Shown in pieces: positions 35,794 through 59,680 of a stretch of DNA of 64,000 bases. The notes under the pieces are model-generated. The model was not told where the DNA came from. It did not search any database and saw only the letters and a list, made by a program, of their open reading frames with translations. Made by a program: the position numbers and the translations under genes. Position 1 is the first letter of the stretch. The number at the start of each line of letters is the position of its first letter. Source of the stretch: Escherichia coli. Lineage in GTDB: Bacteria; Pseudomonadota; Gammaproteobacteria; Enterobacterales; Enterobacteriaceae. The stretch is taken from NCBI RefSeq assembly GCF_001677475.2, contig NZ_CP015229.1, one strand, 5' to 3'.

Positions 35794-36088
35794 AGATTCC
35801 TCTAATTAAATTCCAGTACACCGAACTAGTTGTATAAATAAATACACAACGAATTAATAACTCACTAAATTCGGCACAACACTGCCTGAAATAATCGACA
35901 AAGAATATGATTTATTGCAATTTAACCATTAATTATTAAAGAAGAAAGCAGTCGTTATTTTTAATACATATTTGGTAGTTTTAATAATTTAAATTACATA
36001 GCTAATATGAATATATATAACATTTTAGCAGCATGAATTTTCGCACTATCACACGATAGCTGTTCATTTTTTATACTGTTCAAGGATA

Positions 36089-36121
36089 AAAAAAGGCCCC
36101 TGTTGAATGGGCAGGGGCCTG
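36089..36121 (-). terminator. Rho-independent terminator downstream of cutC
   Basis: GGCCCCTG-TTGAATGG-GCAGGGGCC hairpin with a U-run on the minus strand (A-run on plus). Confidence 0.75.
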
Positions 36122-36166
36122 GTACGAGCAAGCATCATATTGGGCGACATGATGCAACGGTAAAAA

Positions 36167-36922
<756 letters not shown>

Positions 36923-47944: not shown

Positions 47945-49606
47945 TCAAAATGTTTCCCAGTTTGGATCTTGTTCAGCAATTCGCAGTCGTGGCTGTGCCG
48001 GTGGTTGCTCACTGGCAGGACGGGATGATGTTTGCTGTTTATTGGTGAGTGGGCTGGCTGCCAGACGAAACGCGGAAACCGCTTGCGTTAAACGACTGGC
48101 CTGTTCTTCCAGCGCAGCTGCGGCGGCAGCTGATTCCTGCACCAGCGATGCGTTCTGTTGCGTGACGCGATCCATTTCCGAAACCGCCAATGCGACTTGA
48201 TCGATGCCACGGCTCTGTTCATCCGATGCCGATGCAATCTCGCCCATAATGTCAGTCACGCGAGTGACAGCATTGACGATATTGTTCATTGTTTCCCCAG
48301 CGCTTTCGACCAGCACCGAACCGGTATCAACGCGCGAGACGGAGTCTTCAATGAGGGCTTTGATCTCTTTTGCCGCCTGGGCGCTGCGACTGGCAAGATT
48401 ACGCACTTCACCCGCCACCACGGCAAAACCACGGCCCTGTTCACCCGCACGCGCGGCCTCAACCGCGGCATTCAGCGCGAGGATATTAGTCTGGAAGGCA
48501 ATACCGTCGATAACGCTAATAATGTCGGCGATTTTCTTCGAACTATCGGCGATCTCATGCATCGTTTTCACTACGCCATCCACCACTTTGCCGCCGTGCT
48601 GGGCGGTGTCGGAGGCACTTTGCGCCAGTTGCGAGGCCTGGCGGGCGTTATCAGCGTTTTGCTTCACTGTCGCGGTGAGCTGCTCCATGCTGGCGGCAGT
48701 TTCTTCCAGCGCGGATGCCTGCTGTTCAGTACGGGAGGAAAGATCGGTGTTGCCCGCCGCAATTTCACGGGTACCGGCATAGATGGCATCGGAACCTTCG
48801 CGCACATGAGTGACGGTGTCAGTCAAAGAGCGTTGCATATGTGAAACGCTCTGCGCCAGGTCGCCCATTTCACTGCGCCCGTCAATGGTCAGGGTATTCG
48901 CCAGGTTACCACCGGCGATTTCGCGAATATGAGCAATAATTTTTGCCAGCGGTGTAAGCAACATACGGCGAATGCCGTACCACGCCACCAGCAGAATCAA
49001 TACCACCACCAGCGCAATAACCGCCAGTTGCCACTGGGCAAATCGGTAATCATCTGCGTTGTCAGTGACGATATCGCGATACAGTTTTTCACTGCTGAGG
49101 GCGTACTGAGCAAACGCTTCGCCCATTGCATTTTGCATTCCCTGGGTTGGCTGAGCGAAATAAGCTCCAGTATTGCCATAATCAAGATAATCAATCAGTT
49201 CAGTTAACGCTGTGTGATAGTTTTTATATTTTTCATCAATATTACGACTGGTAGCGACCATTTCAGGTAACGGTGCCATGCTTTTGAATTTTTTATAATG
49301 AGTCGCTGCCTGGGCCAATGTTTTCCTGGCGCTATCGAGTAATTCAACTTTGGCGTTACTTTGTTGATTTGAGGAATCCATCATCATCCGTACCGCTGAA
49401 CGACTCAGGTTAATGCGCGTTTGCAGCATTAAATCCCAGGTTGACGTCAGCTCGCCCTGCTGTTCCCGTAATTGATTGGAAACCACAAAGCTCTTCTGGC
49501 TATGGTGAAGGGAAGAAAAAAACAGACTGCCGGAAATAAGCTGTAACAGTGCGAATACCCCCAGCACCATTACCAACAGCGTGACTACGCGGATACGGTT
49601 AATCAT
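47945..49606 (-). CDS. tar: Methyl-accepting chemotaxis protein II (aspartate/maltose sensor)
   Basis: 553 aa from [23 protein letters not shown]-terminal NWETF pentapeptide present. Confidence 0.95.
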
Positions 49607-49637
49607 AAGGCACCTTCCTGAAAACAAGTTGATCTCG

Positions 49638-49664
49638 TTATCGGCAAGGAGGGGGGAAACTTTA
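49638..49664 (-). promoter_or_regulatory. Sigma-28 (FliA) class III promoter of the tar-tap-cheRBYZ operon
   Basis: Minus strand reads TAAAGTTT-N11-GCCGATAA, an exact match to the FliA consensus, about 30 bp upstream of the tar start. Confidence 0.85.
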
Positions 49665-49684: not shown

Positions 49685-49712
49685 TAAATTGAAATAAAAA
49701 ACCCGATGCGCA
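49685..49712 (-). terminator. Rho-independent terminator downstream of cheW
   Basis: CCCGATG-CGCAGAT-CATCGGG hairpin followed by a U-run on the minus strand. Confidence 0.75.
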
Positions 49713-49750
49713 GATCATCGGGTTCATTTCAATTGAGGAAATCAGGAGAA

Positions 49751-50254
49751 TTACGCCACTTCTGACGCCGCGCTATCTAACAGCGCCATCTCTTCGCTGT
49801 TCAGCAGTTTTTCGATGTTCACCAGAATCAACATGCGGTCACCCAGTGCGCCCAGTCCAGTGAGATATTCTGTTGAAAGCGTCACGGCAAATTCCGGTGC
49901 CGGACGAATTTGCTCCGCCGTCAATGAAAGCACATCTGAGACGCCGTCAACCACGATGCCGACCACCCGCTGTCCGAGATTCAGGACGATAACTACCGTG
50001 TTGTCGTTATAGTCCACATCCACCTGGCTGAACTTAATTCGTAAGTCAACAATCGGCACAATAACGCCGCGCAGATTCGTGACGCCTTTGATAAACGCAG
50101 GCGTGTTCGCAATCCGTGTTACCTGATCGTAGCCACGAATCTCCTGCACTTTCAGGATATCAATACCGTACTCTTCATCACCAAGGGTAAATACCAGAAA
50201 TTCCTGGCCTGACGGCTCGCTGGCCAGCTTTGTTACATTCGTCATACCGGTCAT
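49751..50254 (-). CDS. cheW: Chemotaxis coupling protein CheW
   Basis: 167 aa; [25 protein letters not shown]. Confidence 0.96.
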
Positions 50255-53166: not shown

Positions 53167-53170
<4 letters not shown>

Positions 53171-54054
53171 GCTTCCTCGGTTGTCGTCTGTTGTTGCGGA
53201 TTTTTCACCGCACGCACATGCTCTTCCAGTTCAATAAACGATGGACGTTCGCTGGAATAGAGCGTTTTGCGACCAAACTCAACGGCGATAGGCGGTGCGT
53301 AACCGTTCAGATTAGAAAGCAGTGTGACTTTGACGCATTGCATCATTTTGCTGGTTTCGGCGCTTTTCTGACGTAAAACACTCGCTAATGGGGAAATAAA
53401 TCCGTAAGCCAATAAAATACCGAGGAAAGTCCCCACCATCGCATGTGCGATAAGCGCCCCCAGCTCGGCGGCAGGACGATCGGCTGAACCTAACGCGTGA
53501 ACGACCCCCATCACAGCCGCGACAATACCAAACGCCGGAAGTGAGTCCCCGACCAGCGCCAGACTGTTCGCCGGGACTTCTGCCTCGCTTTCGTGCGTCT
53601 CAATCTCTTCATCCATCAGGGCTTCGATTTCGAAGGTGTTCATGTGACCGCTGATAATCAGGCGCAGATAATCGACGATAAAATCAAGCATGACGCTATC
53701 CGCGAGGATGCGTGGGTAGCTGGCGAAGATCTCGCTCTCACGGGGATTTTCAATATCACGTTCCAGCGAAAACATCCCCATCTGCCGCGATTTCGCCATC
53801 AACCGATAAAGCAGAGCCAGCAGATCCATATACATTGCTTTGGTGTATTTGGAGCGACGAAACAGCAACGGCAGCGCCTTCAGCGTGCCTTTAATCGCTT
53901 TGCCATTATTGCCGACGATAAACGACCCAATCCCTGCACCGGCAATAATCACCAGTTCAGCGGGTTGATAGAGTGCTCCAAGGCTTCCACCGGTCATCAA
54001 ATAACCGCCGAAAACTGTACCGAGAACAACCAGGTAACCTAATAAGATAAGCAC
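53167..54054 (-). CDS. motA: Flagellar motor stator protein MotA; GTG start
   Basis: 295 aa from (GTG)[16 protein letters not shown]. Confidence 0.96.
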
Positions 54055-54122
54055 GACATCATCCTTCCACTGTTGACCATGACAGGATGTTCAGTCGTCA
54101 GGCGTTAACGCGCGATTGGGGC

Positions 54123-54155
54123 AAAAAAAAGCAGCGGTACGTCGTTACCGCTGCT
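54123..54155 (-). terminator. Rho-independent terminator downstream of flhC
   Basis: CAGCGGTAACGACGTACCGCTG hairpin followed by a run of 8 U on the minus strand. Confidence 0.7.
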
Positions 54156-54180
54156 GGAATGTTGCGCCACACCGTATCAG

Positions 54181-54759
54181 TTAAACAGCCTGTACTCTCT
54201 GTTCATCCAGCAGTTGTGGGATAATATCGGCACGATTCTGGGAAAGTTTACGTCTTTTTACTGCCCGGGATGGCGGTTGACATAAGCTGCAGGCAAAGCT
54301 GCCAACAGGCTGGTGAGCGTGGGTAATAAAATTGCCGCCGCAGCAGTTGCAGCTGGAAAGTTGCAGTAATCCACTTTCAACAAACCGCACCAATGTCCAG
54401 GCACGGGTTAATGCCAGCAGCGGTCCTTCTTTTGCTTGCGGGCACTGTTCAAGGTATAAACGGTAAGCTTTGATCACCGCATCGACGCCATTACACAAAC
54501 CGGTTTTCAGTAAAAACTGCCATGCATTACAGAACATCGAAGCATGAACATTTTGTTCCCAGGTCATAAACCAGTCGGTTGAGAATGGCAGCATGCCTTT
54601 CGGCGGTGGGCTTCCGCGCAGTTCTTTATAAAGTTTTATCAGGCGTCCGCGACTTAACTGTGTTTCGCTTTCCAACATCTGCAAACGAGCGCCCAGGGTG
54701 ATCAATTCCATTGCCAGCTGAATATCCCGCGCTTCCTGAACAATGCTTTTTTCACTCAT
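54181..54759 (-). CDS. flhC: Flagellar master regulator subunit FlhC
   Basis: 192 aa; Zn-binding cysteines ([24 protein letters not shown]). Confidence 0.96.
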
Positions 54760-55390: not shown

Positions 55391-55892
55391 CAAAACGCTC
55401 AATTACTTAACATAAATGTATAAGTCATACTTTTGTTTTGGGTGTATTTCAATCTGTTAAAAAGTTTTTCGCGACGCTAGCAAGCAAAAATGAAACAGGA
55501 ATAATCGAAATGGGATGTTGCGCACAGTTAAAATAACTCACCGTAAATAATCATCTGCTATAAATAATTGCTTTAATGCAATACCAGATAAGCTATTTTT
55601 AAACAGACACTTACCGCACAACAAACTAATTAAATACAAAGAAAGGCAACAATCAACTTAATGTTAATAAAATGTTTTACATATATTAACCACTTGTTTA
55701 ATATGGAGAATCAGTACATTATTTTCTTATAATTACAGTTGAAATCATATGATCACCGAGAGTGATTGATTAATTGTATTTACTAATAATCAGACTAATA
55801 TTTACCTGTTTGACTGAGTTGGGATTGCGTCGATTCTCCATTAGGAGTAAAGCTTTAATGTCACCTGAAGTTCACAGAATAAGGAACAGGTT

Positions 55893-56327: not shown

Positions 56328-59680
<3,353 letters not shown>

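Follow-up and report, generated by a model that had tools for sequence, protein, structure and literature searches.

Two transcription units meet in the stretch of Escherichia coli DNA analysed here (the window, 64,000 nt), and they raise the question of where transcription of motA begins. A textbook sigma-28 (FliA) promoter can be read directly in front of tar, and a sequence-only reading of the window could make out the flhC terminator but no comparably clean FliA element in the 126-bp gap between flhC and motA; it suggested that the class 3 promoter of motA may be degenerate or lie partly within the flhC coding region, and named a FliA position weight matrix (PWM) scan and a comparison with mapped motA starts as ways to check this. 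In our reading, which we hold at a probability of roughly 95%, the locus carries two class 3 FliA promoters, one ahead of tar (Ptar) and one inside flhC (PmotA), with FliA binding, fliA dependence and transcription starts transferred from E. coli K-12. FliA freed from FlgM would direct RNA polymerase to both. Ptar would drive tar-tap-cheRBYZ from a start that geometry places about 25 nt ahead of the ATG. The PmotA transcript would begin at 54217, cross the flhC stop codon and meet the terminator in the gap, where stopping would leave the 95-nt Hfq-binding sRNA MotR and read-through would give the motAB-cheAW mRNA.

The genes that frame the two promoters are the following.

47945..49606, minus strand: tar coding sequence, 553 aa (NCBIfam NF011622, 1196 bits, full length; start aligned to K-12)
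49751-50254, minus strand: cheW coding sequence (above its NCBIfam equivalog cut-off)
53167..54054, minus strand: motA coding sequence, GTG start (NCBIfam TIGR03818, 385 bits; start aligned to K-12)
54181..54759, minus strand: flhC coding sequence, 192 aa (NCBIfam NF009365, 285 bits; stop codon 54181-54183)

The names given to tar, cheW, motA and flhC in the sequence-only reading are borne out, as tar, tap, cheW, motA, flhC and flhD each lie far above their own NCBIfam equivalog cut-offs. Across a 5.4-kb stretch, 5,387 complete E. coli genomes match at 95-99% identity (best 98.9%), and the window is 98-99% identical to E. coli. The flhD upstream region at 55411-55418 is IS-free where MG1655 has a 768-bp IS1H at this junction, and an IS-free flhDC regulatory region is the ancestral state. 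Elsewhere in the window, Rfam matches at the gathering score mark known sRNAs that are unrelated to FliA promoters, namely MicL (36088-36395, minus strand, 356 bits) and the overlapping pair SraC/RyeA (758-902, plus strand) and SdsR/RyeB (762-861, minus strand).

The promoter in front of tar is made up of the elements listed here, together with the terminator that precedes it.

49657..49664, minus strand: Ptar -35 octamer TAAAGTTT (direct read, exact pattern, K-12 identity, FliA ChIP-seq motif)
49638..49645, minus strand: Ptar -10 octamer GCCGATAA (direct read, exact pattern, K-12 identity, ChIP-seq)
49630..49633, minus strand: probable tar transcription start zone, about 5-8 nt past the -10 octamer (geometry of the annotated motR start)
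49692..49725, minus strand: cheW terminator, which ends motAB-cheAW (scan: 10-bp stem 49725..49699, then TTTATTTC)

Read directly, the minus strand at 49664..49638 is TAAAGTTT-N11-GCCGATAA with the 11-nt spacer cccccctcctt (49646-49656, that is, 49656..49646 on the minus strand), and it agrees at 16 of 16 positions with the sigma-28 consensus printed by Hollands et al. (PMC2859248), TAAAGTTT-n11-GCCGATAA. The sequence-only reading had called an exact FliA consensus here, correctly in both string and coordinates, and this is the sole match without mismatch in the 64 kb on both strands; the perfect pattern appeared in 0 of 100 dinucleotide-preserving shuffles, and its analytic expectation is 3e-5. 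Ptar lies on the same strand as its operon and ends 32 nt ahead of the tar ATG (49604-49606), with a Shine-Dalgarno sequence (GGAAGG, 49613-49618) in between, and a start placed by geometry would give tar a 5' UTR of about 25-28 nt. Known as the class 3 promoter of tar-tap-cheRBYZ (the ‘meche’ operon), Ptar serves in the literature as a standard FliA/FlgM reporter. In K-12 its 28-mer is a FliA ChIP-seq motif with a FAT of 57 (Fitzgerald 2014, Table 2) and the sole perfect-consensus motif among 52 FliA ChIP-seq sites, and tar expression drops from 251 to 0 in a delta-fliA strain (Fitzgerald 2014).

The spacer between cheW and tar also scores 97.3 bits with the Rfam model of the candidate sRNA C0465 (RF00116; 49654-49731, plus strand; gathering score 40). 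This match lies on the other strand from tar and cheW and spans both the cheW terminator and the Ptar -35 octamer. One might therefore assign the perfect FliA match to C0465 rather than to a tar promoter, given that score and the overlap with the -35 octamer, and yet we give this assignment almost no credence. The match probably reflects merely the origin of the family in the K-12 tar-cheW spacer, to which the window is identical in this respect, and the K-12 RefSeq annotation has no gene at the locus; the match takes in the cheW terminator but just a portion of the promoter, and this on the other strand, and the FliA ChIP-seq signal together with the loss of tar expression in delta-fliA explains the motif. 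We therefore retain the tar promoter. The cheW terminator itself begins 26 nt past the cheW stop and lies 27 nt ahead of the Ptar -35 octamer.

Among other genera, Ptar evolves as an ordinary intergenic promoter: a FliA site of at least 19 bits follows cheW at offsets from 34 to 199 nt in at least 10 genera (Escherichia, Salmonella, Cedecea, Yersinia, Serratia, Rouxiella, Hafnia, Photorhabdus, Xenorhabdus and Morganella). Within 400 nt past cheW, no FliA site was seen at several loci of Citrobacter, Enterobacter and Kluyvera, a negative that gives no firm indication of promoter loss.

Turning to motA, we built a FliA PWM from 49 of the 52 K-12 ChIP-seq motifs (Fitzgerald 2014, Table 2), leaving out the three sites of this locus because the test would otherwise be circular. 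The scan covered 127,946 positions on both strands, and 30 shuffled windows gave a maximum of 19.3 bits.

49637-49664, minus strand: tar promoter, 25.6 bits, rank 1
54223-54250, minus strand: PmotA inside flhC, 21.7 bits, rank 2
57457-57484, plus strand: site inside otsA, 16.5 bits, rank 3, within the shuffle range
54055-54180, minus strand: best position in the flhC-motA gap, 2.0 bits, rank about 700

Both Ptar and PmotA thus exceed the shuffle maximum. The minus strand of the gap (54055-54180) reaches at best 2.0-2.5 bits with all three matrices, at ranks of about 400-800, and holds no sigma-70-like site. The proposed scan accordingly returned no high-scoring site in the 126-bp gap and a 21.7-bit site inside flhC, and the gap is much as the sequence-only reading had described it, with a terminator (stem 54155..54130, T8) and no FliA element (best 2.0 bits). 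The weak site in otsA, TGAAATTG-N11-GCCGATAAT, has three mismatches and runs antisense to otsA (56328-57761, minus strand); it is the ‘(otsA)’ FliA ChIP-seq peak, with a FAT of 2 and unchanged expression (Fitzgerald 2014). A further candidate at 15558-15584 on the plus strand, CAAAGTTT-N11-GGGGATAA, was rejected as a chance match, with three mismatches, no CCGA core and a score within the shuffle range.

The second-ranked site and the start associated with it are resolved as follows.

54243..54250, minus strand: PmotA/motR -35 octamer TAAACTTT (two-mismatch pattern, PWM rank 2, K-12 ChIP-seq, conservation)
54224..54231, minus strand: PmotA/motR -10 octamer GCCGATAT (pattern, PWM, ChIP-seq; spacer 54232-54242)
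54217, minus strand: motR/motAB-cheAW transcription start, an A, third base of flhC Pro181 (K-12 motR 5' end 1977302 by alignment)

At 54250..54224 the element reads TAAACTTT-cccagaatcgt-GCCGATAT, with 14 of 16 consensus positions and the correct 11-nt spacer, and by chance the 400 nt ahead of motA would contain 1e-4 FliA matches with no more than two mismatches. The -35 octamer overlaps flhC codons Arg170-Lys171-Leu172-Ser173 and the -10 octamer codons Ala177-Asp178-Ile179, so that the same DNA encodes FlhC residues 170-179; the whole site falls in the final 70 nt of the flhC coding sequence, with 43 nt between it and the gap and 169 nt between its end and the motA GTG. PmotA is therefore a strong, near-consensus promoter, neither degenerate nor only partly in flhC. 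Of the two suggestions in the sequence-only reading, ‘degenerate’ does not survive a 14/16 match that scores 21.7 bits and ranks second in the scan, and ‘partly within flhC’ pointed in the right direction and was wrong in ‘partly’, since the site sits entirely inside at 54250..54224.

Published work on K-12 places the motA promoter at the same site. The PmotA 28-mer is the FliA ChIP-seq motif ‘(flhC)motAB-cheAW’ with a FAT of 101 (Fitzgerald 2014, Table 2), the second highest of 52 FliA ChIP-seq peaks and higher than that of the perfect tar site; the loss of fliA in K-12 lowers motA expression from 302 to 1 and leaves flhC at 107, and the promoter within flhC was reported to drive motA (Fitzgerald 2014). 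As for the comparison with mapped starts, it rests on the K-12 annotation, where the motR 5' end maps to 54217, 7 nt past GCCGATAT, that is, still inside flhC and 34 nt ahead of the stop codon; Melamed 2023 credits the motR start to published mapping of transcription start sites.

A promoter of motA might instead be sought in the gap itself as a degenerate FliA site, the gap being the usual place for a promoter. Such an arrangement has some precedent: in Salinisphaera (three loci) flhC has no internal FliA site, and an intergenic candidate, TCAAGCTC-N11-GCCGCTAAC, lies about 58 nt before motA, in line with the published trend for a gap site to occur where flhC has none (bioRxiv 10.1101/188474). 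For the window, however, this alternative is very improbable and in effect refuted by the gap scores given above, by the lack of a sigma-70-like site and by the fact that the 21.7-bit site 43 nt upstream coincides with the annotated motR/motA start. In the Cupriavidus outgroup, flhC likewise has no internal FliA site, and nothing above 9-10 bits was found within 450 nt.

It is also conceivable that the match inside flhC is conserved just for the sake of FlhC residues and is no functional promoter, as the site is coding and the R-K-L and A-D residues of FlhC are themselves conserved. We retrieved flhC-motA junctions through a degenerate DNA pattern for a MotA N-terminal peptide, which does not involve the promoter, and assembled a set of 100 Enterobacterales species in about 28 genera with FlhC identities of 72-100%. 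In all 100 species TAAACTTT and GCCGATA are invariant, the 11-nt spacer between them varies widely, and the end of the PmotA 28-mer is fixed 42 nt ahead of the flhC end. The codons CGT-AAA-CTT and GCC-GAT are used exclusively (100/100 species; third-base entropy 0), although CGT is one of six codons, CTT one of six, GCC one of four and GAT one of two for their residues, whereas third-base entropies run from 0.5 to 1.9 bits in the Cys, Gln, Pro, Pro, Ser, Arg and Ala codons immediately upstream, whose residues are conserved to the same degree. Selection at PmotA acts on the DNA, beyond the coding constraint, because the octamer codons are frozen while neighbouring conserved residues vary synonymously. 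Similarly, PmotA has been described as the most conserved FliA promoter and as a ‘duon’ that constrains FlhC Ala177-Asp178, with a D178A FlhC that is fully functional (bioRxiv 10.1101/188474, Fitzgerald 2017/2018). With the high FliA FAT and a motR start at the right distance added to this, a purely coding explanation has next to no chance of being right, and the functional promoter inside flhC stands.

The conservation extends beyond the two octamers. Adjoining the -35 octamer on its upstream side (-44..-34) is GTAAAAAGACG (54251..54261, minus strand), which contains an A5 tract and covers codons Val167-Lys168-Arg169-Arg170; their third-base entropy across the 100 species is 0-0.08 bits, against 0.5-1.9 for neighbours. 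This invariance goes beyond the published -35/-10 constraint, and a proximal UP-element subsite would be expected at the position of the A5 tract. The A-tract in GTAAAAAGACG may thus act in an UP-element-like manner, a suggestion drawn from position and conservation, and, if true, this could explain the stronger FliA ChIP-seq signal of the motA site despite its 14/16 match (FAT 101, versus 57 for the 16/16 tar site).

Two assemblies carry indels in this region. Enterobacter cloacae DSM 26481 has a 1-nt deletion in the PmotA spacer, which leaves a 10-nt spacer and a frameshifted FlhC C-terminus, and in Citrobacter amalonaticus AUH_CA_2023_1 an additional A within the A5 tract frameshifts flhC and brings a stop within TAAACTTT. 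These indels are either assembly errors or strain-level lesions that hit FlhC and PmotA together.

With the start inside flhC, the apparent flhC terminator takes on a second role.

54123..54217, minus strand: MotR sRNA equivalent, 95 nt (94/95 identical to K-12 motR; alignment)
54123..54155, minus strand: terminator common to the flhDC mRNA and MotR (scan: 10 bp, 6 GC, then T8)

By alignment the K-12 RefSeq ncRNA motR (1977208..1977302) falls at window 54217..54123; MotR is thus the first 95 nt of a 163-nt motA leader, and its 3' end is the last T of the terminator T-run. The stem pairs 54155..54146 with 54139..54130, the U-tract is 54130..54123, and MotR folds with a 3' terminator hairpin and U-tail (-28.7 kcal/mol, z = -2.1); Rfam 15 holds no MotR family against which the sequence could be scored. 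As transcription starts inside flhC, the ‘flhC terminator’ lies 62-95 nt downstream of the sigma-28 start, within the motA leader. Besides ending flhDC transcripts it ends MotR, and a sigma-28 transcript has to pass it before motA is reached. In K-12, MotR was described as a sigma-28-dependent, Hfq-binding sRNA derived from the motA 5' UTR that pairs with the fliC and rpsJ mRNAs; longer MotR bands were ascribed to read-through of its terminator, and the choice between MotR and motA mRNA was tentatively credited to S10-NusB antitermination (Melamed 2023).

Read-through could also be invoked from the other direction, with motA lacking a promoter of its own and being expressed from the class 1 flhDC promoter. 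The two genes lie on the same strand only 126 bp apart, and read-through has been discussed for flagellar operons, but a strong terminator (10-bp stem, T8) separates them, and the K-12 delta-fliA strain keeps flhC expression while losing that of motA, so that we regard this explanation as highly unlikely and PmotA as the source of motA transcripts. The same K-12 values, flhC at 107 beside motA at 1, indicate that the shared terminator is tight for flhDC transcripts. An alignment of 36 leaders shows this terminator to be invariant in its basal 7 bp, with covarying apical pairs and loop, which is unusual for a plain terminator.

A possible, if doubtful, explanation for these features is that the flhC-motA terminator discriminates between promoters by means of an RNA structure that the sigma-28 transcript itself carries. 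The structure proposed is an alternative helix (helix B) with the following strands.

54206..54213, minus strand: proposed helix B 5' strand CUGCUGGA, MotR 5-12 (complementarity)
54151-54158, minus strand: proposed helix B 3' strand UCCAGCAG, MotR 60-67, overlapping the left arm of the terminator (complementarity)

The terminator stem is MotR 63-72 : 79-88 and shares 63-67 with helix B, so that the two folds are mutually exclusive. Under this model the first 12 nt of the sigma-28 transcript (with CUGCUGGA, set by flhC Leu-Leu-Asp codons) would pair with UCCAGCAG before the right arm of the terminator exists, and part of the untranslated sigma-28 transcripts would therefore reach motAB-cheAW; on the flhDC mRNA, ribosomes finishing flhC would block pairing of the 5' segment, and the same terminator would be tight.

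Several predictions from folding are consistent with this model. A duplex between the 5' 18-mer and the rest of the leader has z = -3.0 in the window (200 shuffled probes) and z = -3 to -4.7 across Enterobacteriaceae and Erwiniaceae, with a perfect 10-bp helix in Pantoea. In ViennaRNA calculations helix B is the predicted minimum free energy structure of the nascent RNA from 1-68 to 1-83 (P = 1.00). For RNA 1-88 the terminator is favoured in the window (-28.4 versus -25.5 kcal/mol for helix B) and in K-12 (-26.6 versus -23.1), helix B lying about 3 kcal/mol above, and once helix B has formed, only a 5-bp hairpin, 5 nt from the U-tract, is predicted to be left. The accidental mutant MotR*, in which UGC at 6-8 has become GAG, loses helix B in silico (-12.8 versus -25.7 for the terminator); it was reported as ‘more abundant’, with no reason given (Melamed 2023), which is what would be expected if helix B normally lowers termination. 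Helix B also coincides with the base of the terminator, which is frozen across about 25 genera.

Other observations count against helix B or are neutral. In Yersiniaceae, Hafniaceae and Xenorhabdus/Photorhabdus the 5' end shows no significant pairing with the terminator arm. The helix B 5' strand is conserved also in lineages without the partner, which argues against the model. Although 99.3% of cells can pair, none of the eight pairs covaries (0/8), both strands being nearly invariant. For Leu, CTG is in any case the favoured codon, and the CCAGCAG segment may instead be frozen for pairing with MotR targets. In Providencia (three loci) and Morganella (four loci) the motA leaders are short, about 134-136 nt, and mostly without an obvious U-run terminator; the partner of their 5' end is a segment close to the motA ribosome-binding site, about 100 nt downstream, and the two genera differ there by one compensatory change (AGAUGGCA:UGCCAUCU versus GGAUGGCA:UGCCAUCC). 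A MotR-like sRNA may be absent there, and this different partner means that pairing with the terminator arm is not universal.

If the antiterminator reading is true, it would account for the contrast between motA at 1 and flhC at 107 in delta-fliA, for the frozen basal 7 bp of the terminator (about 25 genera) beneath a covarying apex, and for the greater abundance of MotR* with its changes at positions 6-8, and it would offer a simple cis mechanism for the choice between MotR and motA mRNA. The literature we searched contains no discussion of alternative structures in the motA/MotR leader.

The window is another Escherichia chromosome with the known Ptar, PmotA and MotR, all of which are already published (Fitzgerald 2014 and 2017, Melamed 2023), and the case is of use for calibration: a strong promoter lying 43 nt within the upstream gene escapes a by-eye scan that is confined to the intergenic gap, and the apparent flhC terminator serves as a decision point of the motA leader too. 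The comparison with K-12 is close throughout. At Ptar, the 27-nt element through the tar ATG is identical and stands in the same place after the cheW terminator; three bases differ in the 20 nt ahead of the -35 octamer and one more right after the cheW stop, and no functional effect is expected from these. The motA promoter of E. coli and Salmonella (the ‘mocha’ operon) has the same octamers, spacing, position in flhC (over Ala177-Asp178) and distance to motA as PmotA here. Over 261 nt (flhC 3' end, gap and motA start) the window has two differences from K-12 MG1655, and the octamers are identical. One is a spacer base of PmotA (54233, C to G) that makes FlhC Pro176Arg, a residue that, like the spacer, is variable across species, with Arg in only 2% of the 100. 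The other lies in MotR, which shares promoter, 95-nt extent and terminator with its K-12 counterpart (b4828; Melamed 2023, eLife) and has U instead of A at position 49 (window 54169). Judging from the sequence, these two differences are unlikely to matter functionally, since the spacer varies freely among species.

The proposed helix B, finally, would resemble the attenuators of trp-type leaders, in that two helices are mutually exclusive and translation of an overlapping reading frame (here flhC) would cover the 5' segment, a likeness that is speculative. Unlike the trp leader, the motA leader would work with no leader peptide and no sensed metabolite, and two promoters would feed one terminator.
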